Shown in pieces: positions 5,739 to 50,742 of a stretch of 64,000 nt of DNA (position 1 is the stretch's first letter; each line of letters starts with the position of its first letter). The stretch is from NCBI GenBank assembly GCA_034189125.1, contig JAXHVB010000018.1:775-64774 (forward strand), given 5' to 3'. Origin of the DNA: Pseudomonadota bacterium (GTDB taxonomy: Bacteria > Pseudomonadota > Gammaproteobacteria > Pseudomonadales > UBA5862). The notes beneath the pieces were generated by a model. It did no database searches. It saw only the letters and a program-made list of their open reading frames with translations, and had not been told where the DNA came from. The position numbers were made by a program, and so were the translations under genes.

Positions 5739-5909
5739 GGTGGGCAAGAGGCAGTTGAAGGGGTGGTGTCTGGGGTCAGTGACATTTGGAGAGGGCGCGC
5801 GCCCCGCCTTTTCGGCGGATAGGGGGCCATGTCTGCACCGGTCCAGAAGCGGTGCGCCGCTAGACCGGTGCGACCGCGCCACGTAAAGTGTAGTGCATCG
5901 GCGCTGGCA

Positions 5910-6653
5910 ATGGGCGATTGGGGGGCAGCTGTGTTCGACGAGCGCTACGATGTTTTGTTGGCTCGAACGCCCGCAACGGAAGCGGCGCACCATTGGGTGC
6001 GGTACAAGGTGTACTGTGAAGAGCGCGGGTTCGAGCCGCGGGACCGATTCCCCGACCAGCAAGAGCGCGACGGTTGGGATGACGATGCGGTGAAGTTTGT
6101 GGTCAAGCACCGCGGGTGGGAGGAGTACACCGCCGCTGTTCGGCTGGTCCAGGGTGGCTCTGCCGGCTTTCCGGCCGAGCACTACTGTGAATTGGACCAG
6201 GACCACCTGCGCTGCGTGGAGCCTGGGCAGGTGGCTGAGTTGTCGCGGCTGTGCGTGGTCAATGGCACCCGTCAGGATTTTTGGCCAGGTCCAACTGTAA
6301 GGCGCGCAGATTCCACCGCCAACCCAGCCACCGTGGTGGGGATTTTCTGGGGCCTGATGCGGGCTGCTCTGCGGTACAGCGAGCGCCACGACATTCGCCA
6401 CTGGTACTTCGTGACCACCCGCGGCATGGCGAAAATCCTGCAGCGCAACCTCATCGAGAGTGAATGCATTGGCGCGCCCTGCGTGCTGGGGGGGTTGCGG
6501 TACCCGTATCTCGTGGACGTGCATGCCTCCCGGCAACGAATCCTTCAATCATCCTCCCGGCTGGCGGGGTTTTACCGGGCCGATGCCCCCTACCATGTAG
6601 GGCACCACACCCCCGAGGAAGACCGGCAGGCCTCCTTGTCGCCCTTGCTATAG
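5910..6653 (+). CDS. PEP-CTERM/exosortase-associated acyltransferase (NAS-like GNAT), copy 2, divergent paralogue
   Basis: ATG at 5910 (Met28 of the track ORF). Shares VRYKVYCEERGFEPR, KFVVKH and AELSRLCV with copy 1. Length (~247 aa) is typical for the family. Confidence 0.75.
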   Translation: MGDWGAAVFDERYDVLLARTPATEAAHHWVRYKVYCEERGFEPRDRFPDQQERDGWDDDAVKFVVKHRGWEEYTAAVRLVQGGSAGFPAEHYCELDQDHLRCVEPGQVAELSRLCVVNGTRQDFWPGPTVRRADSTANPATVVGIFWGLMRAALRYSERHDIRHWYFVTTRGMAKILQRNLIESECIGAPCVLGGLRYPYLVDVHASRQRILQSSSRLAGFYRADAPYHVGHHTPEEDRQASLSPLL

Positions 6654-6780
6654 CCTCGTAAGACGATATGGCCAGCACGCGCCTCAGTTGTCGGTCGTGG
6701 GGCCCGCGATCCTCTTGTTTTGGGGTTTCGCGCCAAATGGAGTTGCAGGCGTGAAGCCGGTATCCTGTCCGCCGCTGTGC

Positions 6781-6814
6781 CTTGGGTTCCCAGGCGGCGC
6801 GCCGCTCTTGGGTT
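6781..6814 (+). promoter_or_regulatory. candidate operator upstream of the EPS operon: 12-bp perfect palindrome flanked by direct repeats
   Basis: GCGGCGCGCCGC (6794-6805) is a perfect palindrome. CTTGGGTT occurs at 6781-6788 and 6807-6814, each preceded by GCCGCT (6771-6776, 6801-6806). The element lies 90-130 nt upstream of the ATG at 6903. Confidence 0.25.
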
Positions 6815-6902
6815 TGGGCACTCTGCATACAATTTCGTCTACGCTTTAAACCGTTACCCGGTGGTTCATACCGCTGGGTGTGATTGCTCAAGGGGATTTC
6901 GA

Positions 6903-7538
6903 ATGACTGTGCGACGCACGTTGAGACTGGGACTGGTGGCTGCCGCGGTGGCCGTGCTAAGCGCGTGCAGCTCAGGGCTGCAAACCCTGCCGTCCGCGAC
7001 GCTGCGCCCATCGATCAATGTGGTTCAACAGGACTACGACTACTTGATCGGCCCCGGTGACAGCCTGCAGATTTTCGTTTGGAACAACCCCGAGGTGTCC
7101 ATGGGGGTCACCGTGCGGCCTGATGGAAAGATCAGCACGCCGTTGGTTGAGGACCTTGAAGTCAGCGGCATCACACCGACGGAAATGGCGCGCAAAGTTG
7201 AGGTGGTGCTCAGCCGGTACATCAAGGACCCCATCGTTACAGTCATCGCCGGTGGGTTCATTGGACCCTACGCGGAGCAGGTGCGCATCATCGGCGCTGC
7301 CAGTGCGCCCCAGTCGCTTCCCTACCGTGAGCACATGACAGTGCTGGATGTGATGATCGCCGTCGGAGGGTTGACGGACTTTGCCGCTGGCAACAGCACG
7401 CGGCTCATCCGCATTGAGGATGGGGCGCAGCAAGAGTACCGCGTTCGCTTGGAGGACCTGGTGCGCGATGGGGACATCAGCGCCAATGTGGACCTGAAGC
7501 CAGGTGACATCCTGATCATTCCTGAAGCCTGGTTTTGA
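6903..7538 (+). CDS. polysaccharide export outer-membrane lipoprotein (Wza-like, PEP-CTERM-locus export protein)
   Basis: ATG at 6903 gives MTVRRTLRLGLVAAAVAVLSAC with a lipobox LSAC. Poly_export motifs are present (YLIGPGDSLQIFVW, PDGKISTPL, GDILIIP). An SD-like AGGGGA lies upstream. Confidence 0.85.
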   Translation: MTVRRTLRLGLVAAAVAVLSACSSGLQTLPSATLRPSINVVQQDYDYLIGPGDSLQIFVWNNPEVSMGVTVRPDGKISTPLVEDLEVSGITPTEMARKVEVVLSRYIKDPIVTVIAGGFIGPYAEQVRIIGAASAPQSLPYREHMTVLDVMIAVGGLTDFAAGNSTRLIRIEDGAQQEYRVRLEDLVRDGDISANVDLKPGDILIIPEAWF

Positions 7539-7641
7539 CCCCGGTGCTTGTTGGTGGCGCGCAATGTTGCCTGTGGATGCGCCTGTGGTCAGACACAAAC
7601 TTTCAACCCCTTGAACACTGAGCAGCCTGCGGAAGGACGCG

Positions 7642-9189
7642 ATGCAAGAACAGCTTGAGTTGGTGCTTTCCTATGCCCGGGGCGTCTGGAAACGGCGGTG
7701 GTGGGTATTGGCGATCGCGTGGCTGGTCGCCGTGGTCGGTTGGGTGTTCGTGCAGCGGCTGCCGGATGAATACGAATCGAGTGCGCGGGTGTACGTGGAC
7801 ACCCAAAGTCTGCTCAAGCCGCTGCTGCGTGGACTCACCATTCAAATGGACGTGGGTCAGGAAATTCGTCTGATGGAGCGAACCCTGCTCAGTCGACCCA
7901 ACCTTGAAAAAATCGTGCGGATGACCGATCTGGACCTGGCGGCGACCACTGACGTGGAGTATGAGGCCCTGCTCAACCGCCTGAAGGGCAACATCGAGAT
8001 GTCCAAAGACAGCCGCCAAAACCTGTATTCGATCTCCTACTCGGACTCCGACCCAGAGCAGGCGAAGCGGGTGGTTCAAGCGGTGGTGACAACCTTCATC
8101 GAAAACACCATCGGCGAGCGCCGCGACAGCACGGCGACGGCCAGTGCGCAGCGCTTTCTGGACAAACAGATCAGCGAATACGAGCAGCGCCTGCGCGAAT
8201 CCGAGGCCCGGCTCAAGGAGTTCAAGCAGAACAATGTGGCCTTTATGTCAGGGTCAGGTGGCTATTTCCAACAGCTGCAGAATGCCCAAACGCAGCTCGA
8301 GACCGCCCGGCTGGAACTGAAGGAAGCCGAGGAGCGGCGCGACTCGATTCTGTGGCAACTGGAAAACGAAGAATCGGAAGACCTGCTGATGCCGGACTTT
8401 GGCCTGGGCTCGGGCGCTTCGGTCGCCACCCCGTACGATGGGCGCATCGAAAACCTCAACACCCAGCTCGATTCCATGTTGCTGCGGTACACCGAGCAGC
8501 ACCCGAGCGTCATTGAGTTGCGCCGCACCCTGGCGGAGTTGGAGAAACTGCGTGACGAGGAGGTTGCCCGCGCAACTTCGGCGGACCTCTCACCCAATGC
8601 GGATGACCGCGGGCCTTTTTATCAGCAGTTGCGATTGGCGCTCTCCCAAGCCGAGGCGACAGTGGCTTCGCTGACCGCCCGGGTGGCCAATTTCCAATCG
8701 AAAGCCGAGGCACTGCAGGCCAAGGTCGATACGGTGCCGGAAATCGAGGCCCAACTGACCGCTCTAAACCGGGACTACGGCATCACCAAGACCAAGTATG
8801 AGGAGCTGCTGAACCGGCGCGAGTCTGCACTGATGTCGCAGCGGGTCGAGGAAGATGTCAATGACATTCAGTTTCGCGTCATCGACCCACCCCGTGTTTC
8901 TGCAACGCCAACTGGACCCAATCGACCGCTGCTGATGGCCGGCGTGCTGGGTGTTGGCCTGGTGATCGGAGGCGGATTGGCCACCCTGTTTTCACTGCTC
9001 CGGCCCACGTTTACGAGCACCCTGCTACTTGGGCAAATCACAGGCGTGCAGGTGCTGGGGACGGTGTCCTACCAAGTCGCTACGGGAGAGGCGCGTCGAC
9101 AACACCGCTTGATGCTGGCTTTTTGGGGGGGGACGCTGATGCTGCTTGCGGCCTACTGCGCACTGGTTGCCTACAACCTGTTTTTGTAA
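7642..9189 (+). CDS. polysaccharide chain-length determinant (PCP, PEP-CTERM-locus subfamily; kinase-less half of a split PCP-2)
   Basis: 515 aa with an N-terminal TM (WWVLAIAWLVAVVGWVF), a long coiled-coil periplasmic region and a C-terminal TM pair. The Wzz-like segment YESSARVYVD is present. RBS GGAAGGA at 7631. Confidence 0.85.
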   Translation: MQEQLELVLSYARGVWKRRWWVLAIAWLVAVVGWVFVQRLPDEYESSARVYVDTQSLLKPLLRGLTIQMDVGQEIRLMERTLLSRPNLEKIVRMTDLDLAATTDVEYEALLNRLKGNIEMSKDSRQNLYSISYSDSDPEQAKRVVQAVVTTFIENTIGERRDSTATASAQRFLDKQISEYEQRLRESEARLKEFKQNNVAFMSGSGGYFQQLQNAQTQLETARLELKEAEERRDSILWQLENEESEDLLMPDFGLGSGASVATPYDGRIENLNTQLDSMLLRYTEQHPSVIELRRTLAELEKLRDEEVARATSADLSPNADDRGPFYQQLRLALSQAEATVASLTARVANFQSKAEALQAKVDTVPEIEAQLTALNRDYGITKTKYEELLNRRESALMSQRVEEDVNDIQFRVIDPPRVSATPTGPNRPLLMAGVLGVGLVIGGGLATLFSLLRPTFTSTLLLGQITGVQVLGTVSYQVATGEARRQHRLMLAFWGGTLMLLAAYCALVAYNLFL

Positions 9190-9254
9190 CGCCCCGCCAT
9201 GGCCCTTGAGTCGTTGCACCCCGTACTGCTGGACCCACCATTGGAATCGCCCGT

Positions 9255-10085
9255 ATGGACACCATAGAGAAAGCACTGCAAAAGTTTGATCAAGCCCCCG
9301 GTGTGCCAGGTGCGGACCGAAACAGCCCGCCGCCGGATGGTGCAACCGCGCTGTCCTCGCGTTCAAGGGCGGAGATCAATTTCGACCAGCTGAGGGCGGA
9401 GGGGCTGCTGGTTCCCGACGATACGCGCACCCAGCTCAAGGAAGAGTTCCGTCACATCAAGCGCCCATTGCTGAAAAAACTGGCTGCCAACAGCGCGAAT
9501 GGCCGAACCCAGCACCGCAACATTGTGATGGTGACCAGTGCCCGTCCAGGAGAAGGAAAAACCTACAATGCCATCAATCTGGCACTGAGTGTCGCAGAAG
9601 AGCGAAACCGCCGTGTTCTGCTGATCGACGCGGATGTGTTGAAGCCGTCTGTTGGCAGGAAGCTCGGGCTGGAGGAGACCCGTGGCTTGGTGGATTACCT
9701 CACCGGTGAAGCGCAAGGACTCAGGGATCTGTTGCTCAAGACCAACATTCCGCAGTTTACCGTTATGCAATCCGGCAAACGGCACCACCTGACCACGGAA
9801 CTTCTTGCCAGTGACCGCATGCGGCAGTTGATCGACGAACTCGCGCAGCGGTACTCCGACCGCGTGGTGGTGTTCGACTGCCCACCGCTGCTCAGCACCA
9901 CGGAGGCGAGCGTGCTGGTGCAGTTGGCTGGTCAGGTGGTGATGGTGGTGGCCGAAGGCGAAACGACCCACTCCGAGGTCAACAAGTCGCTCGCCCTGAT
10001 TGGTTCCAAGACCGATGTCGGGGTGGTGTTGAACAAAAGCCGGGTTGGGCACGACGGGTACGGCTATTACTACTATGGGTCCTGA
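9255..10085 (+). CDS. chain-length-determinant tyrosine autokinase (BY-kinase, PEP-CTERM-locus subfamily)
   Basis: Walker A SARPGEGKT, Walker A' VLLIDADV and Walker B VVVFDCPP. The C-terminal Tyr cluster GYGYYYYGS has 6 Tyr in the last 9 residues. Confidence 0.85.
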   Translation: MDTIEKALQKFDQAPGVPGADRNSPPPDGATALSSRSRAEINFDQLRAEGLLVPDDTRTQLKEEFRHIKRPLLKKLAANSANGRTQHRNIVMVTSARPGEGKTYNAINLALSVAEERNRRVLLIDADVLKPSVGRKLGLEETRGLVDYLTGEAQGLRDLLLKTNIPQFTVMQSGKRHHLTTELLASDRMRQLIDELAQRYSDRVVVFDCPPLLSTTEASVLVQLAGQVVMVVAEGETTHSEVNKSLALIGSKTDVGVVLNKSRVGHDGYGYYYYGS

Positions 10086-11694
10086 GTCCCGGGAGCAGAC
10101 GCCCGGTTTCTATCTTCGCTGCCTTTGTGTTTGGTTGTTTGGGGTCGTCCTGAGCGGCGGCGTGAACGCTGCGGACTGGGAGCGTCAGGCCCGACTCAAC
10201 CTGCAGGCGATCTACACCGACAACATCGAACGGTCGGCGACCGGGGAAACCGGCGAATTGGTTGGCGTTGTTCGACCGGGTCTTAGCGCATCAGCCAACG
10301 GCGCTCGATTGCGCTTTGGGGCGGACTACGCGCTGACCCATTCCTTTCACGCCGACGACAGCGACCGGGACCGCACCTACCACCAGTTGGATGGCTTCGC
10401 AGAGCTCGAATTGGTGGAAGACCACCTGTTTTTTGATCTCGATGCGGCTGCGTCTCAGCAGCTCATCGACGCCCAGGCCGCTGCTGGAGTCGACCTGGTT
10501 GCAGGCAACACGGGCAACATCGCCACTGCCTGGCGACTGAGTGGTGGCCCCCGGTGGCGCCAACGCCTGGGCGGTTACGGCCTCGCCCAGGCCGCCTACA
10601 CCTACAGCGTTGTGGACTATTCGGACGGCCTCAATGGCAGTACCGGCGGGGTGTTCACTGCATCACTCGACAGCGGTGCGCGCACCTACCCGGTTTTCTG
10701 GAACCTGAGCTACCTCAATGAGTCGTTGGACTACGAACAAGGCGCCGACCGTGACCGCAGCCGCGAGCACGGTGAGGTGACGCTGGGCACGCGGGTCACG
10801 GCCTCGACCTATGTGTCTGGCACCTATGGATTCGACCGCCGCGACCTGCTGGATACCAATGGCCGCTCGGCGCCCGACAATGACTTCTGGCGCCTGACTG
10901 CTGGCTGGAACCCCAGTTCGAAAACCGACCTCTCGGTGTACCACCAAGAGCGGGATTTCAAGAGCGCTGCCATTGCAGCGGATGCCGAATCGAGTTTCTG
11001 GGGTGCCAACGCACGCTGGTCACCCAACCCGCGGTGGTCCTTGAACGCCGGATATGGCAATGACTTTTACGGCGACACCTACAACCTTGGCATCTTCCAT
11101 CGATTGCGGCGGGTGAGCTGGTCCCTTGAGCACACGGAGGAACTCACCAACGCCCGGGCTGTGCTGTTGGACGACGCCTTGATCGGTTTTCTGATCTGTC
11201 CGATCGGCGCTTTGGATTTGACCAGTTGCCGGTTTCCTGCTCCGGGCGAGGTTCCGGCACCTGGCAGCGGGGAAGAGTTGGTTGGCATTGTCGGCACTGT
11301 GCCGAGTTTGGTCGAGGACGACTTCGTGCAGCGCAGCACCAGGTTCAGCTGGGCCTACCGGCGCGCAAAATCGACCTGGACCCTGGGGCTGTTCCAAATC
11401 GATCGAGAGGCCTTTGCAGCGGATGACCTCGGGCGCGACCGTGGTGCCTCGCTCGGGTGGTGGTGGCGGGTCGGTCAGCGGTCTACACTCGAATTGGGCG
11501 CCAACCACGTCAAAAAGCAATTCCCGGTCTCGCCGACACTGGAGGAGCGCCGATACCGCATGGGTTGGCGCCGCACCTCGGGGCGCGGGGTCGACTGGTC
11601 CCTGTTGGGGGAGCGCATTGAGGGTGAGCGTGTGGGCGGTGCCGAATTCACCGAACACCGCGTCACCGCTTCAGTAACCGTACGAACTCGGTGA
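10075..11694 (+). CDS. PEP-CTERM-system-associated outer-membrane beta-barrel protein (uncharacterised family)
   Basis: ATG at 10075 overlaps the kinase stop. A signal-like N-terminus (LCVWLFGVVLSGGVNAADW) is followed by alternating beta-strand-like sequence rich in Y/W/G/D/R. Its position is conserved after the tyrosine kinase in XrtA loci (recalled). Confidence 0.65.
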   Translation: MGPESREQTPGFYLRCLCVWLFGVVLSGGVNAADWERQARLNLQAIYTDNIERSATGETGELVGVVRPGLSASANGARLRFGADYALTHSFHADDSDRDRTYHQLDGFAELELVEDHLFFDLDAAASQQLIDAQAAAGVDLVAGNTGNIATAWRLSGGPRWRQRLGGYGLAQAAYTYSVVDYSDGLNGSTGGVFTASLDSGARTYPVFWNLSYLNESLDYEQGADRDRSREHGEVTLGTRVTASTYVSGTYGFDRRDLLDTNGRSAPDNDFWRLTAGWNPSSKTDLSVYHQERDFKSAAIAADAESSFWGANARWSPNPRWSLNAGYGNDFYGDTYNLGIFHRLRRVSWSLEHTEELTNARAVLLDDALIGFLICPIGALDLTSCRFPAPGEVPAPGSGEELVGIVGTVPSLVEDDFVQRSTRFSWAYRRAKSTWTLGLFQIDREAFAADDLGRDRGASLGWWWRVGQRSTLELGANHVKKQFPVSPTLEERRYRMGWRRTSGRGVDWSLLGERIEGERVGGAEFTEHRVTASVTVRTR

Positions 11695-11700
11695 CGGATC

Positions 11701-12750
11701 ATGTACGAATCTTTTTATCAGTACAGTGCCAAGCCGTTCCAGGTGAGCCCGGACCCGCGGTTTTTTTTCGCCAGCAAAGGCCACAAGCGCGCGATGTCCT
11801 ACCTGCGCTACGGCCTGAGTCAGGGCGAGGGCTTTGTGGTCATCACCGGAGGGGTGGGGACGGGTAAGACCACCCTGATCCGCAGCCTGTTCAGCGATCT
11901 GGACGCGGCTGATCTGCTTGCCGCGCAGTTGGTGAGCTCCAATTTGCAGGCGGACGACCTGTTGCAAATGATCTCTGCGGCCTTTGATCTACCTCGCGAA
12001 GGGCGCTCCAAGGGTGAATTGCTCAACCAGTTTGAGGCCTTTCTGCGCCAGGCGGACCGCGAGGGGAAGCGGGTGCTGCTGGTGGTCGACGAAGCGCAGA
12101 ACCTGCCGGCCAGTACGGTGGAAGAGCTCCGGATGCTGTCGAACTTTCAGGTTGAGAACCGGCCGCTGCTGCAGAGTTTTCTGCTCGGACAGGAAGAGTT
12201 TCGCGGGCTGGTGCAGTCTCCCCAAATGGAGCAACTGCGCCAGCGCATCATTGCGTCTTGTCACTTGCAACCCCTGGATCAGGTTGAAACCCGCGGCTAC
12301 ATCGAGCACCGACTGCAGCGGGTGGGCTGGGCGGGCACCAACCCAGCGATCAGCGACGATGCATTCGATGCCATTCACGCCATCAGCCAGGGTGTACCGC
12401 GGCGGATCAACACCTTTTGTGATCGGCTGCTGCTGTATGGTTTTCTGGAAGAACTTGAATGCCTTGATGCCGATGCCGTGGATGTGGTGCGCCGCGAGGT
12501 TTTGGCAGAGCAGCCCAGCGCGCCCAGGGCGGCGGCGTCGATCGCCGCTGCCGATGACGCCTGGGACGAGGGCGAAGAAGACCAGCAGGTCCCGACGCTG
12601 ACGGTGCCCCGGCACCAACGTGCGCCCGTCACCGAACTTGAAAAACGGGTCGCTGACCTTGAGTACGTCATTGAAGCGCTCGAGAAAAATTTCGAACGCA
12701 AAGTGAGCCTGCTGAAGAGCGTGGTTCAGTCATTAAAGAGCGGGCTGTAG
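11701..12750 (+). CDS. ExeA/GspA-like AAA ATPase (XrtA/PEP-CTERM system-associated ATPase)
   Basis: Walker A GGVGTGKT and Walker B LLVVDEAQNL. The N-terminus MYESFYQYSAKPFQVSPDPRFFF is typical of the ExeA family. The C-terminal tail is acidic and coiled-coil-like. Confidence 0.85.
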   Translation: MYESFYQYSAKPFQVSPDPRFFFASKGHKRAMSYLRYGLSQGEGFVVITGGVGTGKTTLIRSLFSDLDAADLLAAQLVSSNLQADDLLQMISAAFDLPREGRSKGELLNQFEAFLRQADREGKRVLLVVDEAQNLPASTVEELRMLSNFQVENRPLLQSFLLGQEEFRGLVQSPQMEQLRQRIIASCHLQPLDQVETRGYIEHRLQRVGWAGTNPAISDDAFDAIHAISQGVPRRINTFCDRLLLYGFLEELECLDADAVDVVRREVLAEQPSAPRAAASIAAADDAWDEGEEDQQVPTLTVPRHQRAPVTELEKRVADLEYVIEALEKNFERKVSLLKSVVQSLKSGL

Positions 12751-12751
12751 G

Positions 12752-13885
12752 TTGGCCATGACTGCAGGCGGTGCGTTGATTTCTGTGGTAGGCGCTCGGC
12801 CCAATTTCATGAAGATTGCGCCCATTTGCGCCGCTTGGAGTGCTGCACAGACAGACCGTGCCCACCTGCTGGTGCACACGGGTCAACACTACGATGCCAG
12901 CATGAAAGTGCAGTTTTTCGAGCAGCTGGGCATCCCCGAGCCTGACATAGACTTGGGCGTTGGCTCCGGCACCCACGCCATGCAGACCAGTGCGATCATG
13001 CAGCGCTTCGAGCCGGTTCTGGACCAGCACCGGCCCGCTGCGGTGCTGGTGGTGGGGGACGTCAATTCCACCATTGCCTGCGCGCTCACGGCGGTGAAAA
13101 AGGACATTCCGGTCATACACGTTGAAGCGGGGCTGCGCAGCGGTGACCGCAGCATGCCCGAGGAAATCAACCGGGTACTGACCGACCAGGTTTCATCTCG
13201 GTTGTACACCACAGAGCGGGCTGCCCTGGACAATTTGACCCGCGAGGGGATTCGGCCGGACGCCGTCTGTTTCGTCGGCAATGTCATGATCGACACCCTG
13301 CTAACCCACAGCAAGCAGGCGCCCGGCATCGAGGCATTGACCTTGGGTACCGGCGTTCGGGCCGACTCTTCGAATGGCTATGGTCTGGTTACCCTGCACC
13401 GTCCGGCGAATGTGGACGATCCCCAGGTGCTGCGCCGTCTGATCGATGCTCTTTGCAAAGTTGCGCAGCGTCTACCCCTGCTGTTCCCTGTGCATCCGCG
13501 GACTGAGGCGCGCCTGCGTGCCCAGGGCCTTTGGGACCAGGCACAGGCGCACCTGGAGCTGCTGCCTCCACTCGGATACCTGCAAATGGTGGGGGCAATG
13601 CGCGACGCCCGGTTGGTCTTGACCGATTCGGGCGGCATCCAAGAGGAGACCACGGCCCTTGGGGTGCCCTGCCTGACCTTGCGCGACAACACCGAGCGCC
13701 CGATCACTGTGGATCAGGGCACCAACACCTTGGTGGGCCGCGACCCCGAACGCATTCTGGAGGCCGTTGCTCAGGCCCTGGCAGGGGCGGGCAAAGCCGG
13801 TCGTATTCCCGAACTTTGGGACGGCCGGGCCGCCCAGCGCATCCTGGACGATTTGCTTCCTTGGCTTGAGGTGCACGGGGCGTGA
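12752..13885 (+). CDS. wecB: UDP-N-acetylglucosamine 2-epimerase (non-hydrolysing)
   Basis: GARPNFMKIAPI, VHTGQHYD, VVGDVNST, HVEAGLRS, MPEEINR and DSGGIQEE are hallmark WecB motifs. TTG at 12752 or ATG at 12758 could be the start. Confidence 0.9.
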   Translation: MAMTAGGALISVVGARPNFMKIAPICAAWSAAQTDRAHLLVHTGQHYDASMKVQFFEQLGIPEPDIDLGVGSGTHAMQTSAIMQRFEPVLDQHRPAAVLVVGDVNSTIACALTAVKKDIPVIHVEAGLRSGDRSMPEEINRVLTDQVSSRLYTTERAALDNLTREGIRPDAVCFVGNVMIDTLLTHSKQAPGIEALTLGTGVRADSSNGYGLVTLHRPANVDDPQVLRRLIDALCKVAQRLPLLFPVHPRTEARLRAQGLWDQAQAHLELLPPLGYLQMVGAMRDARLVLTDSGGIQEETTALGVPCLTLRDNTERPITVDQGTNTLVGRDPERILEAVAQALAGAGKAGRIPELWDGRAAQRILDDLLPWLEVHGA

Positions 13886-14781
13886 GCCAGCCGACGAACC
13901 AACTTGAACGCATTGCCCACGCCATGACGGTCGACGTCGAGGACTATTTTCAGGTCGCAGCGTTCGAGGGCATGTATCCAGTATCCAGTTGGGACACCAT
14001 CCCCACCCGGGTGGAAGTGAACACCCAGCGCATTTTGGACAACTTCGATCGAGCCGGGGTCCGAGCGACCTTCTTTTGCCTCGGCTGGGTCGCCGAGCGC
14101 TGCGCCGCGCTCATTCGTGAAATCGCCGAGCGCGGCCACGAAGTGGCGAACCATGGTTATGCGCACCAGCGGATCGGTACCCTGACGCAGGTTGAGTTCC
14201 GCGAAGACATCCGGCGGGCCAAGTCGCTGCTCGAGGACACCGCGGGTTGTGCGGTGAAAGGATACAGGGCGCCAAGTTATTCGATCACGCCTGAAACCCA
14301 CTGGGCCCATGAGGAGATCCGCGCTGCCGGACACCTTTACAGTTCCAGTGTCTATCCGGTGCGCCATGACCTCTACGGCATCCCCGATGCCCCGCGGGCG
14401 TCCTACGAGGCCTGCGCCGGTCTCACCGAGGTGCCCATCACCACCCTGCGGTGGGGGGGGAGAAACTGGCCAATTGGCGGTGGAGGGTATTTTCGCCTGC
14501 TGCCTTATCCACTGTACCGCAAGGCGCTGCAGCGATTCGAAGACACCGAGGGCCGCTCCGGGTTGTTCTATTTTCACCCCTGGGAAATCGATGTGGAGCA
14601 GCCCCGCACAGCCGGAGCGCCCTGGCGCAGCCGGTTTCGCCATTACCTGAACCTGGATCGCATGGAGTCCCGCTTACACGCCCTGCTCCGTGATTTTCGC
14701 TGGGACCGCATGGATGAACTGTTTGTACCTGCCGATCCCCCTGGTCCGCAGCATCCGGCGCTGCAGGGAGTGTCGGCCTAA
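13882..14781 (+). CDS. polysaccharide deacetylase (NodB-fold, XrtA-system subfamily)
   Basis: GTG start overlaps the wecB stop (GTGA). Motifs MTVDVEDYF, TFFCLGWVAE, HEVANHGYAH and FHPWE match the PEP-CTERM-locus deacetylase family. Confidence 0.85.
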   Translation: MSQPTNQLERIAHAMTVDVEDYFQVAAFEGMYPVSSWDTIPTRVEVNTQRILDNFDRAGVRATFFCLGWVAERCAALIREIAERGHEVANHGYAHQRIGTLTQVEFREDIRRAKSLLEDTAGCAVKGYRAPSYSITPETHWAHEEIRAAGHLYSSSVYPVRHDLYGIPDAPRASYEACAGLTEVPITTLRWGGRNWPIGGGGYFRLLPYPLYRKALQRFEDTEGRSGLFYFHPWEIDVEQPRTAGAPWRSRFRHYLNLDRMESRLHALLRDFRWDRMDELFVPADPPGPQHPALQGVSA

Positions 14782-15867
14782 ATGGCAGTAGAGCCGGTCC
14801 AAGTGGGTGCGGAGAGCTCGCCTGTCGGTGAACCGATGCCGCTGCGCGTTGAGGCTTTACCGACTGACGGGAATGCGGCATGGAACCGGTTTGTGCAGGA
14901 GCAGGCCGGGGCCACCTTCTTTCACCGGGCTGAGTGGCGCCAGGTCTTGGAGCAGGCCTTTGGCCACCAGGGCCATTACCTGCAATGCCTTCGCGGCGAT
15001 GTGGTGGTGGGGGTGTTGCCCCTGGTCGAAGTCAAGAGCTTGCTGTTTGGGCACTCTCTTATTTCCACACCCTTCTGTGTCTACGGGGGCGCCCTGGGGG
15101 CCGATCCGCAGGTGCAGGACAGGCTGGTTGATGCGGCGGCCGACTTGGCAGAGCAGTTGGGGGTCGACTACCTGGAGCTGCGCAACCTGCAGCGGCAGCG
15201 ACCCGACTGGCCGTGCAAGGACTCGATGTATGTCACCTTTCGTCGGGCGATTGTCGATGACGATGACGCCAACCTGAAGGCGATCCCGCGCAAGCAGCGC
15301 GCGATGGTGCGCAAGGCCCAGCAGACGGGCTTGACGTTCGAGATAGATGCACAATTGGATCGTTTCTACACAGCATACAGCACCAGCGTGCGCAACCTCG
15401 GGACACCGGTGTTCTCGCGCAAGTACTTTTCCACCCTGCAGCAGGTTTTCGGTGAGGACTGTGAGGTTTTGACCGTTTCCCATGAGGGCCAGTTGGTGGC
15501 GAGTGTGCTCAGCTTTTACTTTCGTGACCAGGTCTTGCCCTACTATGGAGGTGGTACCGACCTTGCGCGGGCACTGAAGGGCAATGACTTCATGTACTGG
15601 TCCCTGATGTGTCACGCACAACGCCGGGGGGCGCGTTGGTTTGATTATGGCCGCAGCAAAGTCGATACCGGGCCTTACAGTTTCAAGAAGAACTGGGGTT
15701 TTTCGCCGGAGCCGCTGTACCACGAATACCACCTGGTCAAGGCCAAGGCAGTGCCCGAGGTCAACCCACTCAACCCCAAGTACCGGTTGATGGTTGAGAC
15801 CTGGAAGCGCTTGCCGTTGGGGGTCAGCCAGTGGCTTGGTCCCTGGATCTCGCGGTCCTTGGGTTAG
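14782..15867 (+). CDS. FemAB-family protein (PEP-CTERM-system-associated; aminoacyl/peptidyl-transferase-like GNAT pair)
   Basis: The ATG immediately follows the deacetylase TAA. At 361 aa, the sequence (FFHRAEW, YLELRN, KQRAMVRKA, YYGGG, FKKNWGF) resembles FemAB/BioF2-like acetyltransferase (DUF482-type) proteins conserved at this position in XrtA loci. Confidence 0.8.
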   Translation: MAVEPVQVGAESSPVGEPMPLRVEALPTDGNAAWNRFVQEQAGATFFHRAEWRQVLEQAFGHQGHYLQCLRGDVVVGVLPLVEVKSLLFGHSLISTPFCVYGGALGADPQVQDRLVDAAADLAEQLGVDYLELRNLQRQRPDWPCKDSMYVTFRRAIVDDDDANLKAIPRKQRAMVRKAQQTGLTFEIDAQLDRFYTAYSTSVRNLGTPVFSRKYFSTLQQVFGEDCEVLTVSHEGQLVASVLSFYFRDQVLPYYGGGTDLARALKGNDFMYWSLMCHAQRRGARWFDYGRSKVDTGPYSFKKNWGFSPEPLYHEYHLVKAKAVPEVNPLNPKYRLMVETWKRLPLGVSQWLGPWISRSLG

Positions 15868-15876
15868 GAAGCCTGC

Positions 15877-17088
15877 GTGGATGCTCCGCCCATTCTGTTT
15901 CTTGCCCACCGCATTCCCTACCCCCCCAACAAGGGGGACAAGGTGCGCTCCCACCATTTTTTGCGGCATCTCAGTGCGCGCCATCGGGTGTTCCTCGGAA
16001 CCTTTGTCGATGACCCTGAGGATTGGGCACACGAGCCGGAGCTAGCCCGCTGGTCGACTGAGCGCTGCGTGTTGCCACTCAATCCACTCAGTGCTCGGTT
16101 GCGTTCGGTGATGGGGTTGATCAGCGGTGCTCCACTGACCAACCCCTACTATGCGAGCCGTACCCTTCGCGGCTGGGTTGAGGATGTGATCGAGCGCGAG
16201 CGCATTCAGACGGCTTTCGTGTTCTCGTCGTCCATGGCGCAGTACGTGATGGGCGCGACGCGGCTGTCCCGCAGGGTGGTGGACTTTGTGGACCTGGACT
16301 CCGACAAGTGGCGCCAGTATGCCGAACGCCAGCGCCCCCCGATGCGGTGGGTGTATCAGCGCGAACATCGCCGACTCGCACAGTGGGAACGGCAGGTGGC
16401 GGCGGAGTGTCGCATCTCGACCTTTGTTTCCGCTGCGGAAGCTGCGTTGTTTTGCGCCGGAGCGCCAGATCCGGGAGCGGTGCATCCCTTAGGCAATGGT
16501 GTGGATTTGGAGTATTTCGACCCCTCGACCGAGTTTCGCTCCCCCTATGCGACCACAGCACCGGTGCTGGTGTTCACCGGTGCCATGGACTACTGGCCGA
16601 ACGTCGATGCCGTGGTGTGGTTTTGCGAACAGGTGATGCCGCTGCTGCGTGCTAGACAACCAGGGCTCGAATTTTGGATTGTTGGGGCCAATCCCACCGC
16701 CGCGGTCGAGGAACTGGCCGACCGGCCGGGGGTGCGGGTCACAGGCCGGGTGGAAGACGTGCGTCCATACCTGCGCCATGCGGACCTCGCTGTCGCTCCA
16801 CTGCGCATCGCCCGGGGCATCCAAAACAAGGTGCTGGAGGCCATGGCCATGGGCACCCCGCTGGTAGCAAGTCGTGCCGCGTTCGAGGGCATGCAGTTGC
16901 AGCCGTGGATGGCACCCATGTGCGCCGCCACCGAACCCCAGGAATATGCCGAGCGTGTAGTGGCCCTGTTGGGATCGGACGCGCGCGGCGCCCTGGTCAC
17001 TGAGGGGCGGCGATGGGTGGGTGAACACCACAGCTGGCAGCGCAACTGTTCTGCCTTGGAAGCTTTGCTGATGGATGTCGAGGCATGA
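15877..17088 (+). CDS. GT4 glycosyltransferase (PEP-CTERM/EpsH1-associated sugar transferase, stp1-like)
   Basis: GTG start. The N-terminus ILFLAHRIPYPPNKGDKVRSHHFL is characteristic of this subfamily. The C-terminal GT-B segment is RIARGIQNKVLEAMAMGTPLVAS. Confidence 0.8.
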   Translation: MDAPPILFLAHRIPYPPNKGDKVRSHHFLRHLSARHRVFLGTFVDDPEDWAHEPELARWSTERCVLPLNPLSARLRSVMGLISGAPLTNPYYASRTLRGWVEDVIERERIQTAFVFSSSMAQYVMGATRLSRRVVDFVDLDSDKWRQYAERQRPPMRWVYQREHRRLAQWERQVAAECRISTFVSAAEAALFCAGAPDPGAVHPLGNGVDLEYFDPSTEFRSPYATTAPVLVFTGAMDYWPNVDAVVWFCEQVMPLLRARQPGLEFWIVGANPTAAVEELADRPGVRVTGRVEDVRPYLRHADLAVAPLRIARGIQNKVLEAMAMGTPLVASRAAFEGMQLQPWMAPMCAATEPQEYAERVVALLGSDARGALVTEGRRWVGEHHSWQRNCSALEALLMDVEA

Positions 17089-18617
17089 GGCAGGTTCCTA
17101 CGCAGAATGTGCCGTTGGCTTGGCCACGTGCCATTGGTGTGCTCATCGGGTTGGTTGGCCTGGTGGTTCTTGGCATGGCCGGTAGCTTCGTGGCGATGGT
17201 GGAGATCTGGTGGCGTTCTGAGACCTTCGCCCACGGGTTCCTGATTGCGCCCATTGCGCTGTATCTGGTGTACCGCAAACGCGATGCGCTGCAACGCCTT
17301 GCGCCGAGACCCACTTTTTGGGCAGTGCCCTTGCTGTTCGGTTGTGGGGCGGTGTGGTCGCTCGCGCGCCTGGTGGACGTGGCGGTGATCGAGCAGGCCG
17401 CGGCCGTGGCCATGTTGCCTCTGGTGGTCTGGGCCGTTCTGGGAACGGCAGTGGTGCGTGTCCTCCTGTTCCCTCTGGCGTACCTGTTTTTCATGGTGCC
17501 GGTGGGCGAAGGTTTGATTCCGCCGCTCATGGACTTCACTGCCCGCTTTACCGTCGGTGCAATCCGCTTGGTGGGCATCCCGGTTTTCGTCGAAGGCACC
17601 TTTTTCAGCATTCCCAGCGGCAACTGGTCGGTGGTCGAGGGGTGCAGTGGGGTGCGCTATTTGATCGCTTCGGTGGCTCTGGGTGCGCTCTACACCTACC
17701 TGAGCTTCAAATCGTGGGTCCGGCGTTTGTGTTTTATGGGCTTGTTCATTGTGGTGCCCATCATCGCCAATGGCATGCGCGCTTTCATGATCGTCATGAT
17801 CGCCCACTTCAGTGACATGAAGCTGGCCCTGGGCGTCGATCATTTCATTTATGGCTGGGTGTTTTTCGGTCTGGTGATGTTTCTGCTGTTTACGCTTGGG
17901 CTTTTTTTTCAAGAGGCCGATGCCGAGACCAGCAGTGGCGCCGAGGCGAAGTCTGGAGCGGCCACACCAAACCGCAGACCTTCCGGCAGGCTCGCACTGA
18001 TCACACCTTGGGCCGCCGGGGCTGTGGTGGCACTTTGGCCTGGCTTGATGTGGATTCAGTCCGGCCCGGACAACGAGGTGGGGGATTGGCAGCTGGCATT
18101 GCCGGAGCAGTTCTCGGGCTACCGCCGCGCGAGATCCAGCTTTACCACCTGGGTGCCGGCGTACCAGAACCCTGACCAGGAGCGCCACTTCTGGTTCCGA
18201 CGGGGCGACGACTGGATTGGGGTCTACCTGGCACGGTACGCCAGCCAGCGTCAGAACGCCGAGTTGATCAATTCTCAGAACCAGTGGGTCCCGCAAAAAC
18301 ACCCGGAGTGGCAGCAGGTGGCGCGAAGCGCCCACATGCCTGCTTCCGTGGTCGCCCTAAAATCGGTGTCACAGGGTGTGTTGCGCTCCCCCAGTCAGCG
18401 CTTGTTGGTGTGGTCCTGGGACAGTTTTGGGGCTTGGCACGGCGCCAGCCCCTACGTGGGAAAGCTGATGAACGCATACCAGCAATTGCGCCACGGCAAT
18501 GACGAGGGCATCGGCATTCTGGTGTACACCCCAATCGAAGGGGATGAGGGCGCTGCCCGCGAGCGTTTGGCGGGCGCAGCCAATGTGCTGGTCCAGGCCT
18601 TGGAACCGCTCGATTGA
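17085..18617 (+). CDS. xrtA: exosortase A (XrtA/EpsH) fused to a C-terminal EpsI-family domain
   Basis: ATGA overlap with the upstream GT. Eight-TM core with SETFAHGF, catalytic-type Cys187 in EGCSGVRYL (codon TGC 17643-17645), and the Arg/His motif [15 protein letters not shown]. After about aa 290 a linker and TM lead into a ~200-aa EpsI-like soluble domain ([24 protein letters not shown]). Confidence 0.85.
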
Positions 18618-18651
18618 ACCTGGCAAACCAAGCATTCATAAGGAGCCTGGT

Positions 18652-19536
18652 ATGACGCGCAAAGGAATCATTCTGGCGGGTGGGTCGGGCACTCGCCTGC
18701 ACCCGCTGACGGTAACGGTCAGCAAACAACTGATGCCGGTGTACGACAAGCCGATGATCTACTACCCGTTGGCGGCGCTGATGCTGGCGGGGATCCGTGA
18801 CGTGCTGATCATCACCACCCCCAAGGACCAGGCGGCGTTTCAGCAGCTGCTGGGCGACGGCAGCCACTGGGGCATTGCACTGTCCTACGCGGTGCAACCG
18901 AACCCCGACGGCCTGGCCCAAGCTTTTTTGATTGGCGAAGCTTTTTTGGCGGGAGATCCCGCCTGCTTGATCCTTGGAGACAACATCTTCTATGGCGAGG
19001 GCCTGTCCAAAAAACTGCAGCGCGCGGCTGAGAGAGGTCCGGGCGCGACCGTGTTTGGGTACTATGTGCAGGATCCGGAGCGCTACGGCGTGGTCAGCTT
19101 CGATGGGGCGGGTCGTGCGGTGTCCCTGGAGGAGAAACCCGCAGTGGCGAAATCGAACTACGCGGTCACGGGGTTGTACTTTTATGACGCGGATGTGGTC
19201 GAGATCGCCAAGGGCATTCGGCCTTCGCCGCGGGGTGAACTGGAAATCACCGATGTGAACCTGGAGTACCTGGCGCGCGATCAGCTCACCGTCGAGGTGC
19301 TGAGCCGCGGTACCGCCTGGCTTGATACCGGGACGCACAACTCGCTGCTTGACGCGGCGAACTTCATTCGGGTGGTTGAGGAGCGGCAAGGGCTGAAAAT
19401 CGCCTGTCCAGAAGAGGTGGCGTACCGGATGGGATACATCAATGGCGATGCCCTCTTGGCCTTGGCTGAGCCCCTGCGTAAGAGCGGCTACGGGGAATAC
19501 CTGGTCAAGCTGCTCAACCAGGAGGTCCGCCAATGA
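18652..19536 (+). CDS. rfbA: glucose-1-phosphate thymidylyltransferase
   Basis: ATG at 18652 preceded by AAGGAG (18640). [20 protein letters not shown] and LGDNIFYG are canonical RmlA motifs. Confidence 0.95.
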
Positions 19537-20081
19537 AGGTCGCCCCAACGCGCCTGCCAGAAGTGCTGTTGATTGAACCCCAGGTGTTTGGGGACGACCG
19601 CGGTTTTTTCATGGAGACCTGGCAGCGGCGCAAGTTCGCCGATGCCGGAATCGACCTGGACTTTGTGCAGGACAACCACAGCCGCTCGGTCCAGGGGGTG
19701 CTGCGTGGCCTGCATTACCAACTGCTGCAACCCCAGGGCAAGCTCGTGCGGGTGACCCTGGGCGAGGTGTTCGATGTGGCGGTCGACCTGCGGCGCAGTT
19801 CGCCGCGGTTTGGTGAATGGGTGGGTGTGACCCTGTCCGCGGCAACCAAGCAAATGCTCTGGGTGCCGCCGGGGTTTGCGCATGGTTTCTATGTGCTGAG
19901 TGATGTGGCCGAGTTTCAATACAAGTGCAGCGACTACTACGCCCCTGAACACGAGCGCAGCCTGCGCTGGAACGACCCCGATCTCGCCATTGATTGGCCC
20001 CTGGTGGCCGGTGCAGCCCCGGCGTTGTCTTCCAAGGATGCCGAGGGGCATTGGTTGGTGAACGCTGAGGTCTATCCATGA
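19533..20081 (+). CDS. rfbC: dTDP-4-dehydrorhamnose 3,5-epimerase
   Basis: ATGA overlap. [18 protein letters not shown] and [10 protein letters not shown] are canonical RmlC motifs. Confidence 0.95.
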
Positions 20082-20944
20082 AGGCGGTGGTCCTGGGGGC
20101 GCAGGGGCAGCTCGGTCGTGCGCTTTGCGAACAGTGTCCGACGGGCATCGACCTGGTTGGATTGGGTCGAGCCGAGGCGGACCTCGCCCAGCCAGGTGCG
20201 GCCGCTGCAGCGATCGATGCCCATGCCCCTGAGTTGGTCATCAACGCCGCTGCCTACACCGCAGTGGATCAGGCGGAATCGGAGCCCGATTTGGCGCACC
20301 GGGTCAATGCTGAAGCAGTCGATGAAATTGCGCTGCAGTGCCTGCGCCAGGGTGTACGCCTTGTGCACGTGTCTACCGACTTTGTCTTCGATGGCCGGGC
20401 CGGCACCCCCTATCGGCCGGGGGATCAAACCCAGCCCTTGAGTGTGTATGGCGCCAGCAAGCGTGCTGGCGAAGACGCGATTCAGGCGCATTCAGGGCTT
20501 TCCAGTGCCATTGTGCGCACCGCCTGGGTGTACGCGGCCGGCGGCAGCAACTTCGTGCGCACCATGCTGCGGTTGATGGCGGAGCGCGATGCGCTGAAGG
20601 TCGTTGCCGATCAGGTGGGAAGTCCGACCTGGGCACGGGGGCTCGCGCAGGTGCTGTGGCGAGCCGGCCAAAAGCCGGGATTCAAGGGCATACACCACTA
20701 CACCGATGCCGGTGTGGCGAGTTGGTACGACTTCGCCCTGGCGATCCAAGAGCAGGGGCTCGCCTTGGGTCTGCTGGACCGTTCGATCGAGGTTTCTCCC
20801 ATCGCCACAGAAGACTACCCAACACCGGCCGTGCGTCCCCCGTTCAGCGTGTTGGACAAACGCAGCCTGTATACAGGGCTCGATGTGAATCCGGTGCACT
20901 GGCGGGTGCAACTGCGCGCAATGATGCAGGAGCTGAATGCATGA
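20078..20944 (+). CDS. rfbD: dTDP-4-dehydrorhamnose reductase
   Basis: ATGA overlap. Motifs LVINAAAYTAVDQAE, HVSTDFVFDG and YGASKRAGE (the YxxxK active site). Confidence 0.9.
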   Translation: MKAVVLGAQGQLGRALCEQCPTGIDLVGLGRAEADLAQPGAAAAAIDAHAPELVINAAAYTAVDQAESEPDLAHRVNAEAVDEIALQCLRQGVRLVHVSTDFVFDGRAGTPYRPGDQTQPLSVYGASKRAGEDAIQAHSGLSSAIVRTAWVYAAGGSNFVRTMLRLMAERDALKVVADQVGSPTWARGLAQVLWRAGQKPGFKGIHHYTDAGVASWYDFALAIQEQGLALGLLDRSIEVSPIATEDYPTPAVRPPFSVLDKRSLYTGLDVNPVHWRVQLRAMMQELNA

Positions 20945-22047
20945 CCCAACCCCGTTCGATGCTGATCACCGGGGGCGCCGGATTCATCGGCGCCAACTTC
21001 GTCCACCATTGGGCAGCGAAATATCCCGAGCACCGGCTCGTGGTTCTGGATGCCTTAACCTATGCCGGTAACTTGCAGAGCCTTCAGGGGTTGGATGGGC
21101 AACCCAATTACCGGTTTGTGCATGGCTCGATCAACGACCAGCGCTTGGTTGAACAATTGCTGAAGGAGGAGGGCATTGATTGCATCCTGCATTTCGCCGC
21201 TGAAAGCCACGTAGACCGCTCCATCACCGGTCCAGATGCCTTCATCGAGACCAACGTGCTTGGCACCCACGCGTTGCTCAAAGCCGCGCGGGCGGTTTGG
21301 CTTGCCGGCGACGGCAGGCCGCACCGCTTCCACCACGTGTCCACCGATGAAGTGTATGGCACCTTGACGCCCACGGACCCGCCGTTCACTGAATCGACTG
21401 CGTATGCGCCGAATTCGCCCTACGCGGCGAGCAAAGCTGCATCCGACCACCTGGTGCGGGCCTACCACGAGACCTATGGGCTCGAAGTCACCACGAGCAA
21501 CTGCTCCAACAACTACGGCCCCTACCATTTTCCCGAGAAACTCATCCCCCTGTGTTTGATCAACATCCTTTCGGGCAAGCCACTGCCCATCTACGGCGAT
21601 GGGCAACAGGTGCGGGATTGGCTGTACGTCGCCGACCACTGCCGCGGCATCGAACGCGTGCTGGAGGTGGGGCGGTCCGGGCGCACCTACAACATTGGTG
21701 GCCACAACGAAATGGCCAACCTGGACCTCGTGCACAGCCTCTGTGCCCGAGTCGATGCCGCTTTCGCTGAGGCCCCGGAGCTCAGCGAACGCTTTCCCGA
21801 TGCCCCCCCGGCCAGGGGCAAGGCCAGCACCGAGTTGATCACCTTCGTGAAGGACCGCCCCGGCCACGACCGGCGCTACGCAATCGACGCGCGACGCGCG
21901 ACAGAAGAGCTCGGGTTCGTGCCCGCGGAGACCTTCGAGACCGGCATTGCCAAGACCGTTCACTGGTACCTGGGCCATGAAACCTGGTGGCGCAACGTGC
22001 TGAGCGGTGAGTACCGCGACTGGGTCCAGCAGCAGTACGGTTCCTGA
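20941..22047 (+). CDS. rfbB: dTDP-glucose 4,6-dehydratase
   Basis: True start is the ATG at 20941 (ATGA overlap with rfbD). The track ORF from 20338 is an in-frame read-through of rfbD antisense-free sequence. Motifs LITGGAGFIGANF, HFAAESHVDRS and YAASKAASDHL. Confidence 0.95.
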   Translation: MTQPRSMLITGGAGFIGANFVHHWAAKYPEHRLVVLDALTYAGNLQSLQGLDGQPNYRFVHGSINDQRLVEQLLKEEGIDCILHFAAESHVDRSITGPDAFIETNVLGTHALLKAARAVWLAGDGRPHRFHHVSTDEVYGTLTPTDPPFTESTAYAPNSPYAASKAASDHLVRAYHETYGLEVTTSNCSNNYGPYHFPEKLIPLCLINILSGKPLPIYGDGQQVRDWLYVADHCRGIERVLEVGRSGRTYNIGGHNEMANLDLVHSLCARVDAAFAEAPELSERFPDAPPARGKASTELITFVKDRPGHDRRYAIDARRATEELGFVPAETFETGIAKTVHWYLGHETWWRNVLSGEYRDWVQQQYGS

Positions 22048-23196: not shown

Positions 23197-23224
23197 TGTC
23201 GGATCAACGGAGACACTAGCGGCA

Positions 23225-25123: not shown

Positions 25124-25190
25124 GTCCTGCTTGCGCGCGCGTCCACAACCAGGGTGCGTGCCGTGCCTGCACCCCCTGGCGTTGGCTTCT

Positions 25191-27681: not shown

Positions 27682-27693
27682 CAGGAGACGCCC

Positions 27694-50728: not shown

Positions 50729-50742
50729 GGGCTGGAAGTCCT

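Follow-up and report, generated by a model that had tools for sequence, protein, structure and literature searches.

A polysaccharide deacetylase and a FemAB-like transferase encoded side by side in an exosortase A locus: a candidate pair for aminoacylation of an amino sugar

Introduction

What do a polysaccharide deacetylase and a FemAB-like transferase do together in an exopolysaccharide locus? The question is raised by positions 13882-15867 of a 64,000-nt stretch of contig JAXHVB010000018.1 (the whole stretch is hereafter called the window), where the genes of a deacetylase (family TIGR03006) and a FemAB-like protein (family TIGR03019; Fem-like protein below) stand next to each other in an exosortase A (XrtA)/PEP-CTERM exopolysaccharide locus. 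Such loci are very common among bacteria of the environment and of wastewater, and they drive the formation of flocs and biofilms. The deacetylase and Fem-like pair is one of the accessory components that the XrtA system keeps most constantly. A preliminary description of the window had proposed that the deacetylase creates an amine on a hexosamine and that the Fem-like enzyme adds an amino acid to this amine. Our analysis indicated that the window, which comes from an uncultured proteobacterium, almost certainly carries the canonical pair. For the chemistry, we prefer the reading that the deacetylase frees the amine of an N-acetylhexosamine (HexNAc) and that the Fem-like enzyme aminoacylates it from aminoacyl-tRNA, and our confidence in it is evenly poised between acceptance and doubt. 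The window is a clean example of the pair and holds no new kind of element. The interest lies in the open biochemistry of the two enzymes, to which the comparison adds a conserved Fem catalytic pair, structural neighbours that aminoacylate amino sugars, and a gatCAB-linked gene in one clade.

Identity of the gene pair

The deacetylase gene (13882-14781, + strand) begins with GTG and encodes a protein of 299 amino acids (aa) with a CE4/NodB fold, scoring 414.7 bits against TIGR03006, above the curated equivalog cut-off of 276.2. Pfam assigned Polysacc_deac_1 together with DUF3473, the latter covering the C-terminal half, and the NodB model TIGR04243 matched weakly (46 bits). The motifs D18-x-E20-D21, H91-x3-H95, Y128-R129, H162-D163 and H232-P-W-E235 were invariant or nearly so among 50-73 homologues, and they include the hallmarks of CE4 enzymes, with acidic residues in motif 1, two His metal ligands in motif 2, and the conserved Arg and His in motifs 3 and 5. 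Motif 1 reads DVED, which differs from TFDD. The His-His pair and the motif 3 Arg line up with their counterparts in Bc1960, a peptidoglycan GlcNAc deacetylase of Bacillus cereus. The AlphaFold2 (AF2) model had a predicted local distance difference test (pLDDT) score of 87, and its best Foldseek matches were CE4 enzymes, including an uncharacterised Mycobacterium smegmatis enzyme, Helicobacter HP0310, Salmonella ArnD (8t0j) and Bc1960. ArnD acts on an undecaprenyl-phosphate-linked amino sugar. Neither a signal peptide nor a membrane segment was predicted for the deacetylase, and it is therefore expected in the cytoplasm.

The Fem-like gene (14782-15867, + strand) encodes 361 aa (343 aa if translation starts at ATG 14836). 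The protein scored 485.5 bits against TIGR03019 over model positions 1-330, where the curated equivalog cut-off is 260.35, and the exosortase A gene that membership in this family requires in the locus lies one gene downstream (xrtA, 17085-18617). Its strongest Pfam match was Acetyltransf_6 (64 bits), and FemAB and FemAB_like matched as well; the FemAB match of 35.2 bits (cut-off 24) covered residues 237-306 only, and no single stretch passes alone. No membrane segment was predicted for this protein either, so that both enzymes look cytoplasmic, where aminoacyl-tRNA is available. The names given in the preliminary description to these two proteins, and to the WecB encoded in front of them (TIGR00236), were all borne out by scores above the family cut-offs.

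The pair is not a new observation. The two curated models are themselves defined by association with XrtA loci, and the pair is thereby already catalogued. The same gene order has been tabulated in Rubrivivax gelatinosus (RGS1_10399/10400), Thauera MZ1T (Tmz1t_3276/3275) and Rhodoferax ferrireducens (Rfer_0664/0665), with proteins of the same equivalog-level families as in the window (PMC3684757). The order shared by the window and these clusters is export protein, chain-length determinant, kinase, outer-membrane protein, ATPase, (epimerase), deacetylase, FemAB-related protein and the first glycosyltransferase, after which an exosortase gene and an AsnB-like gene follow in both. Haft 2006 mentioned the deacetylase family and not the Fem-like protein, the Aquincola floc paper has nothing on either gene, and our literature search found no paper mentioning both 'exosortase' and 'FemAB'.

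The window also encodes a second, shorter CE4 deacetylase (39997-40770, - strand; PF01522, 79 bits) amid GT2 genes, and a comparable extra deacetylase is listed in the Rubrivivax and Thauera clusters.

Fold and catalytic motif of the Fem-like protein

The AF2 model of the Fem-like protein showed two GNAT domains in tandem (pLDDT 91.9, predicted template modelling score 0.88). In a Foldseek search of the Protein Data Bank, its 16 best matches were all aminoacyl-tRNA-dependent transferases. They included FemX of Weissella (structures 1ne9, 4ii9 and 7z6a; E ~1e-16, template modelling (TM) score 0.67-0.73) and the recently solved 'aminoacyl-tRNA-dependent peptide synthases' Sbb17/Sba18 complexed with streptothrisamine (9wqx, 9wqy; TM 0.74-0.78 by target length); Staphylococcus aureus FemX and FemA, and then the MprF aminoacyl-phosphatidylglycerol synthases, were further top matches. 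A sequence profile built from 52 homologues pointed the same way, with E values of 2e-7 for S. aureus FemX, 4e-4 for Sba18/Sbb17 and 4e-3 for Weissella FemX. FemA carries a long helical insertion, and none was seen in the predicted secondary structure of the Fem-like protein. Its C-terminal Trp/Arg-rich helices are conserved and merely moderately amphipathic.

Across the 52 homologues 77 positions were invariant, among them F301-K302, which line up with AFKK in S. aureus FemX and with RFK in Sba18. In Weissella FemX, Phe304, described as 'conserved in all Fem transferases', contacts C75 of the tRNA, and the catalytic residue is Lys305 (PMC9723616); F301 and K302 are the presumed equivalents of these two residues. 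A basic helix, IPRKQRAMVRK (residues 168-178), was also invariant and aligns with basic segments of both FemX proteins. Fold and Phe-Lys motif together uphold the Fem-type assignment of 14782-15867 made in the preliminary description.

A tandem GNAT could also re-acylate the freed amine with a fatty, hydroxy-acyl or acetyl group taken from acyl-coenzyme A (CoA) or acyl-acyl carrier protein (ACP), and not with an amino acid from tRNA. The precedent is well established: NodB, a CE4 de-N-acetylase, is followed by NodA, an N-acyltransferase that acts on the freed amine, both in the cytoplasm. Acetyltransf_6, the strongest Pfam match of the Fem-like protein, is moreover a GNAT-clan family, and the acyl-CoA tandem GNATs 2wpw and 7q3a were significant structural matches (E ~1e-9). 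These two, however, ranked below the 16 tRNA-dependent enzymes, with TM ~0.37-0.53 compared to 0.67. NodA itself has an unrelated fold and takes its acyl group from acyl-ACP, and the Nod substrate is a free chito-oligosaccharide. Two sequence features also argue against such a donor. The Phe-Lys pair, whose Phe touches the CCA end of the tRNA, is specific to Fem enzymes and invariant here. The segment after the strand at residues 250-258 (YYGGGTDLARALKGND) looks Fem-like in a by-eye reading and does not resemble the classical Q/RxxGxG/A motif that binds the CoA pyrophosphate. Re-acylation from acyl-CoA or acyl-ACP is therefore unlikely in our judgement.

Conservation of the pairing

The pairing was followed in two sets of loci. 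The genome sample comprised 80 loci chosen via the Fem-like protein, 75 of which had enough upstream DNA to judge; the metagenome sample comprised 80 loci chosen via the deacetylase, 66 of them with enough downstream DNA. In 72 of the 75 genome loci the Fem-like gene was immediately preceded by a deacetylase gene of the same orientation, frequently with a 4-nt overlap, and the Fem-like gene directly followed the deacetylase gene in 60/66 metagenome loci. The adjacency is far beyond chance, and because it is near-universal we regard the coupling of the two genes, as the preliminary description had asserted it, as functional.

The 72 genome loci consist of 71 intact ones and one (L057:8953-10987) in which the coding sequence of the upstream TIGR03006 deacetylase is broken into two reading frames, representing either a pseudogene or an indel error of the assembly. 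Fusions of deacetylase and Fem-like protein were sought among the homologues listed and none was found, the long open reading frames (ORFs) in L004 and L057 being frame artefacts or the frameshifted deacetylase.

WecB does not share this constancy. The preliminary description had chained it to the other two as a three-gene unit, and we considered it as an obligatory third partner. Its gene was directly upstream of the deacetylase in only 34/71 genome and 24/55 metagenome loci (~45-48%), and this role was rejected; WecB is a local supply gene outside the conserved unit.

Both families are large, with at least 8000 clusters at 90% identity for each of the two proteins, and the window's own two proteins were seen in metagenome assemblies only. 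Among the matches listed, their nearest relatives were 55-67% identical, apart from one Fem-like cluster at 90%; for proteins derived from genomes the highest similarity was only 55-65%. The named relatives include Competibacter, Plasticicumulans and Thioalkalivibrio in the case of the Fem-like protein, and Rhodanobacter in that of the deacetylase.

A gatCAB-linked clade

In two of the three genome loci that had no upstream deacetylase (L061 and L066), the Fem-like gene stood directly behind gatA-gatB. The proteins encoded there are full TIGR03019 members (~480 bits), and a search with the L061 protein returned more than 100 clusters at 65-89% identity. In 5/5 of the clusters looked up (65-83% identity to the L061 protein), a divergent mreB was followed by gatC-gatA-gatB and the Fem-like gene. 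These loci (L061:1112-5263, L066:7002-11008, L081:4581-9038, L083 and L085-L088, including Thiosocius teredinicola CP019936) belong to a gammaproteobacterial clade in which the Fem-like gene is the fourth after gatC-gatA-gatB, near mreBCD and outside a polysaccharide locus. The proteins are ~55% identical to the window protein and keep 72 of the 77 canonical invariant residues.

The linkage probably arose by one relocation kept in this one clade, and counts as one event for that reason. The order gatC-gatA-gatB-Fem ties the Fem-like gene to aminoacyl-tRNA metabolism, so that, as far as gene order can tell, it would lend independent, if weak, support to a tRNA donor and speak against the acyl-CoA or acyl-ACP donor considered above. 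It also gives a hint toward Asn/Gln or Asp/Glu as the amino acid.

Proposed mechanism and known systems

On the preferred reading, deacetylation of a HexNAc followed by aminoacylation of its amine, both soluble enzymes would act in the cytoplasm on a nucleotide- or undecaprenyl-diphosphate-linked amino-sugar intermediate of the repeat unit. The metal-dependent CE4 enzyme would strip the N-acetyl group from a HexNAc residue, which here may be ManNAc- or GlcNAc-derived, and the Fem-type tandem GNAT would then move an aminoacyl residue from aminoacyl-tRNA to the freed amine by means of its Phe-Lys pair. The stp glycosyltransferases would extend the modified unit, which would subsequently be flipped, polymerised and exported. 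Four elements of this scheme are inferred: that the acetyl group is removed from nitrogen and not from oxygen, that tRNA is the donor, which amino acid is transferred, and what accepts it. If the product is indeed an N-aminoacyl sugar, no earlier case of a bacterial exopolysaccharide decorated in a tRNA-dependent manner would precede it. The statement in the preliminary description that this chemistry is undemonstrated for XrtA loci still stands, as our literature search found no paper showing it, and the proposed sequence of deacetylation and aminoacylation is plausible but unproven.

Known Fem enzymes offer two kinds of comparison. FemX, FemA, FemB and MurM share the tandem-GNAT fold and the Phe-Lys pair with the window protein and act in the cytoplasm on a UDP- or lipid-linked sugar-peptide precursor. 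FemX and FemA are 14-15% identical to it, and their acceptor is a lysine side chain, whereas that of the window protein is presumably a sugar amine. The second comparison is with Orf11, Sba18 and Sbb17 of streptothricin-type antibiotic pathways, which resemble the Fem-like protein in fold and in a profile match over the C-terminal GNAT domain and the Phe-Lys motif, and which use an amino-sugar amine as acceptor and Gly-tRNA as donor. Orf11 glycylates the amino sugar of streptothrisamine from Gly-tRNA, according to Maruyama 2016 as cited in PMC12945691. Sba18 and Sbb17, however, are Streptomyces secondary-metabolite enzymes, ~19% identical to the window protein, shorter (~286 residues in the solved chains) and active on a small-molecule acceptor.

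The closest studied analogue is found in Caulobacter, where HfsK has been proposed to acylate amines exposed by the deacetylase HfsH, possibly linking the polysaccharide to anchor proteins (PMC5362036). The idea that a FemX-like GNAT modifies amines exposed by a deacetylase is thus older than the preliminary description. By their descriptions, HfsH and HfsK are like the window pair in being a cytoplasmic CE4 deacetylase and a FemX-like tandem GNAT that modify an exported, GlcNAc-containing adhesive polysaccharide, the holdfast. They differ in that hfsK lies outside the hfs locus (PMC8449245) and no exosortase is present. HfsK is described only as a putative N-acyltransferase (PMC5362036), which would also suit an acyl-CoA or acyl-ACP donor.

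HfsK carries a C-terminal extension that binds c-di-GMP, and where the protein localises is under regulation (PMC5362036). By analogy, the Fem-like protein might be a non-catalytic scaffold or regulator of the assembly machinery. A scaffold would hardly account for the 77 positions that do not vary among 52 homologues, which comprise the Phe-Lys pair as well as the basic helix IPRKQRA, nor for the retention of invariant residues even in the relocated gat-linked clade, and we consider it extremely improbable.

Several points weigh against aminoacylation of a freed sugar amine. The identity of the Fem-like protein to assayed Fem enzymes is just 14-19%, the NCBIfam FemX equivalog gave 27.8 bits against a cut-off of 500, and our literature search found no direct assay of any TIGR03019 or PF13480 member. 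No tRNA gene, and hence no dedicated one, was found in the window. Acetylxylan esterases were also among the sequence and structure matches of the deacetylase, and since CE4 includes O-acetyl esterases, amine production by this enzyme is not proven. The role of HfsK has been called 'unclear', and the protein is dispensable in Hirschia baltica (PMC8449245).

The remaining contrary points also feed another explanation. As the gat-linked clade shows, the Fem-like gene need not stand next to the deacetylase gene. In the metagenome sample, six XrtA-type loci had no Fem-like gene directly behind the deacetylase: it was followed by a glycosyltransferase gene in L107, L108 and L168 (L168:4001-7600), by xrtA in L156 (L156:4001-6500), and by nothing that matched the tested genes in L097 and L150. 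These six may come from organisms where the Fem-like gene has moved, for example behind gatB. Granulan, obtained under Competibacter-enriching conditions, has been reported to contain unsubstituted glucosamine, a report tied to no producer or gene cluster (PMC11603125). All three observations would also fit two enzymes that are co-expressed with separate targets. The polysaccharide would then keep the cationic amine freed by the deacetylase, as PNAG, Pel and holdfast do, and the Fem-like enzyme would aminoacylate another molecule such as a lipid, a protein or a precursor of peptidoglycan. Clear structural relatives among aminoacyl-lipid synthases, the MprF enzymes, speak for this. The Fem-like protein, however, lacks an MprF-like membrane domain, and TIGR03019 is defined by its restriction to polysaccharide loci. 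For direct adjacency at 91-96%, often with overlapping codons and in many proteobacterial lineages, the simplest explanation is that the two enzymes act one after the other on the same substrate. Separate targets accordingly strike us as improbable.

A possible link to the exosortase

The amine that serves sortase as nucleophile is the product of Fem enzymes, and in the window the Fem-like gene lies one gene away from the exosortase gene. By analogy with this Fem/sortase A system, the pair could equip one sugar of the lipid-linked repeat unit with a stub, either aminoacyl or a short peptide, and after export the free alpha-amine of the stub could serve as the nucleophile with which exosortase A attaches cleaved PEP-CTERM proteins covalently to the polysaccharide. 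In Gram-negative bacteria the stub would then correspond to the pentaglycine bridge that FemXAB build and sortase A uses, a comparison that is speculative, and we regard this extension as quite doubtful. It is unpublished as far as our literature search shows. If the pair does build an N-aminoacyl sugar, this could also reveal the long-sought exosortase acceptor.

The AsnB-family XrtA/PEP-CTERM amidotransferase of the locus (23225-25123, + strand) scored 1033 bits against TIGR03108 (cut-off 817), aligned from residue 42 of the ORF 23102-25123. Read from 23225, its N-terminus is MCGIAG with the Cys2 nucleophile, in agreement with the Cys-type AsnB named in the preliminary description. If an aminoacyl stub is the exosortase acceptor, an Asp/Glu-type residue with subsequent amidation would agree with both this conserved amidotransferase and the gatCAB linkage. 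Together with a TviB-like dehydrogenase encoded elsewhere in the window (below), the AsnB-type Cys2 makes amidation of a uronic or amino-acid carboxylate possible. A pattern scan of all window ORFs gave only noise, and none carries a recognisable PEP-CTERM tail; the genes of the exosortase substrates must therefore lie in other parts of the genome.

A second, divergent AsnB-like protein is encoded at 56350-58215 (+ strand) and matches TIGR03108 only from model position 109. Beside its gene are those of a PaaK/F390-type adenylate-forming ligase (54743-56365, - strand) and of a protein with squalene-cyclase-like repeats (53519-54709, - strand).

Gene junctions and start codons

The ORFs and the GTGA and TAA-ATG junctions of the preliminary description were all read in the sequence. 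The wecB stop overlaps the deacetylase start in GTGA at 13882-13885, the deacetylase stop TAA (14779-14781) abuts ATG 14782 of the Fem-like gene with 0 nt between them, and 9 nt separate the Fem-like gene from the glycosyltransferase gene at 15877. From these junctions stoichiometric co-expression had been deduced; overlapping stop and start codons suggest translational coupling instead. Terminator-like sites showed no excess in 6500-19000 (14, compared to 10.9 +/- 3.3 in shuffles), and none fell at the gene junctions from 12752 to 17088. A split of the operon by internal terminators was thus rejected, and wecB, the deacetylase, Fem-like and glycosyltransferase genes and xrtA form one tightly packed plus-strand operon.

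The GTG start of the deacetylase at 13882 is well supported, because Ala14, which precedes the alternative Met15, is kept in 71/73 homologues, and no other start codon occurs between the GTG and Met15. A start at ATG 13924 was rejected on the same ground. The start of the Fem-like gene at ATG 14782 is less certain. Its homologues are mostly 340-347 aa long, their alignments begin at residue 19-23 of the window protein, and residues 1-20 had low pLDDT and were predicted to be disordered in the AF2 model. Translation from ATG 14836 would replace the TAA-ATG abutment by a 54-nt gap. Public gene calls on identical metagenome contigs give 299 aa and 361 aa, with the same coordinates as in the preliminary description.

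Organization of the surrounding locus

The pair lies in a densely packed exopolysaccharide locus at 6720-29007 (+ strand), in which all core genes exceed the cut-offs of the NCBIfam XrtA/PEP-CTERM models. Its upstream part encodes an export protein (6720-7538, TIGR03027), a chain-length determinant (7642-9189, TIGR03007), a tyrosine autokinase (9255-10085, TIGR03018), an outer-membrane protein (10045-11694, TIGR03016) and an ATPase (11701-12750, TIGR03015). These are followed by wecB (12752-13885) for a non-hydrolysing UDP-GlcNAc 2-epimerase (TIGR00236, 309 bits with a cut-off of 210; Pfam Epimerase_2, 348 bits). Behind the Fem-like gene comes that of an stp1-type GT4 glycosyltransferase (15877-17088; TIGR03087, 541 bits with a cut-off of 317), as in most related loci. 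The xrtA gene encodes an exosortase fused to an EpsI domain (TIGR03109, 344 bits with a cut-off of 208; TIGR02914, 71 with a cut-off of 43; Pfam Exosortase_EpsH and DUF3485). The downstream core (22057-29007) contains stp2 (22057-23196, TIGR03088), the amidotransferase gene, stp3 (25086-26423, TIGR04063), a further GT4 gene and the gene of an O-antigen-ligase-like protein (27694-29007, TIGR03097), again all on the + strand. No match to PrsK or PrsR was found among the window ORFs scanned, and such genes are often located elsewhere in the genome.

Unlike the published XrtA clusters, the window has a complete dTDP-rhamnose block (rmlA, rmlC, rmlD and rmlB, 18499-22047, + strand; TIGR01207, TIGR01221, TIGR01214 and TIGR01181) inserted between xrtA and stp2, whereas in most related loci stp2 directly follows xrtA. 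A second difference is the presence of downstream sulfotransferase genes and a glycosyltransferase-sulfatase fusion. Sulfotransfer_3 proteins are encoded at 29020-29949 (+ strand) and 38014-39063 (- strand), and a 1058-aa GT2 glycosyltransferase fused to a sulfatase-type domain at 33893-37069 (- strand), which suggests a sulfated or otherwise heavily decorated polysaccharide.

Upstream of the locus, a 550-aa ORF at 4896-6548 (- strand) carries a domain of the TIGR03694 'PEP-CTERM/exosortase system-associated acyltransferase' family that covers only residues 304-535. The N-terminal 300 aa received no family assignment, and the start of the ORF may be mis-set. An MMPL/RND-type transporter gene (2595-4895, - strand) is immediately downstream of it on the same strand. 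Further along the window, a TviB-like UDP-GlcNAc 6-dehydrogenase is encoded at 60178-61770 (- strand), its score of 590 bits being just below the cut-off of 592, and a Wzm/Wzt-type ABC exporter pair at 49472-51561 (- strand). These genes indicate that N-acetylhexosaminuronic acid is supplied, and perhaps that the region holds a second glycan pathway, one that depends on an ABC exporter.

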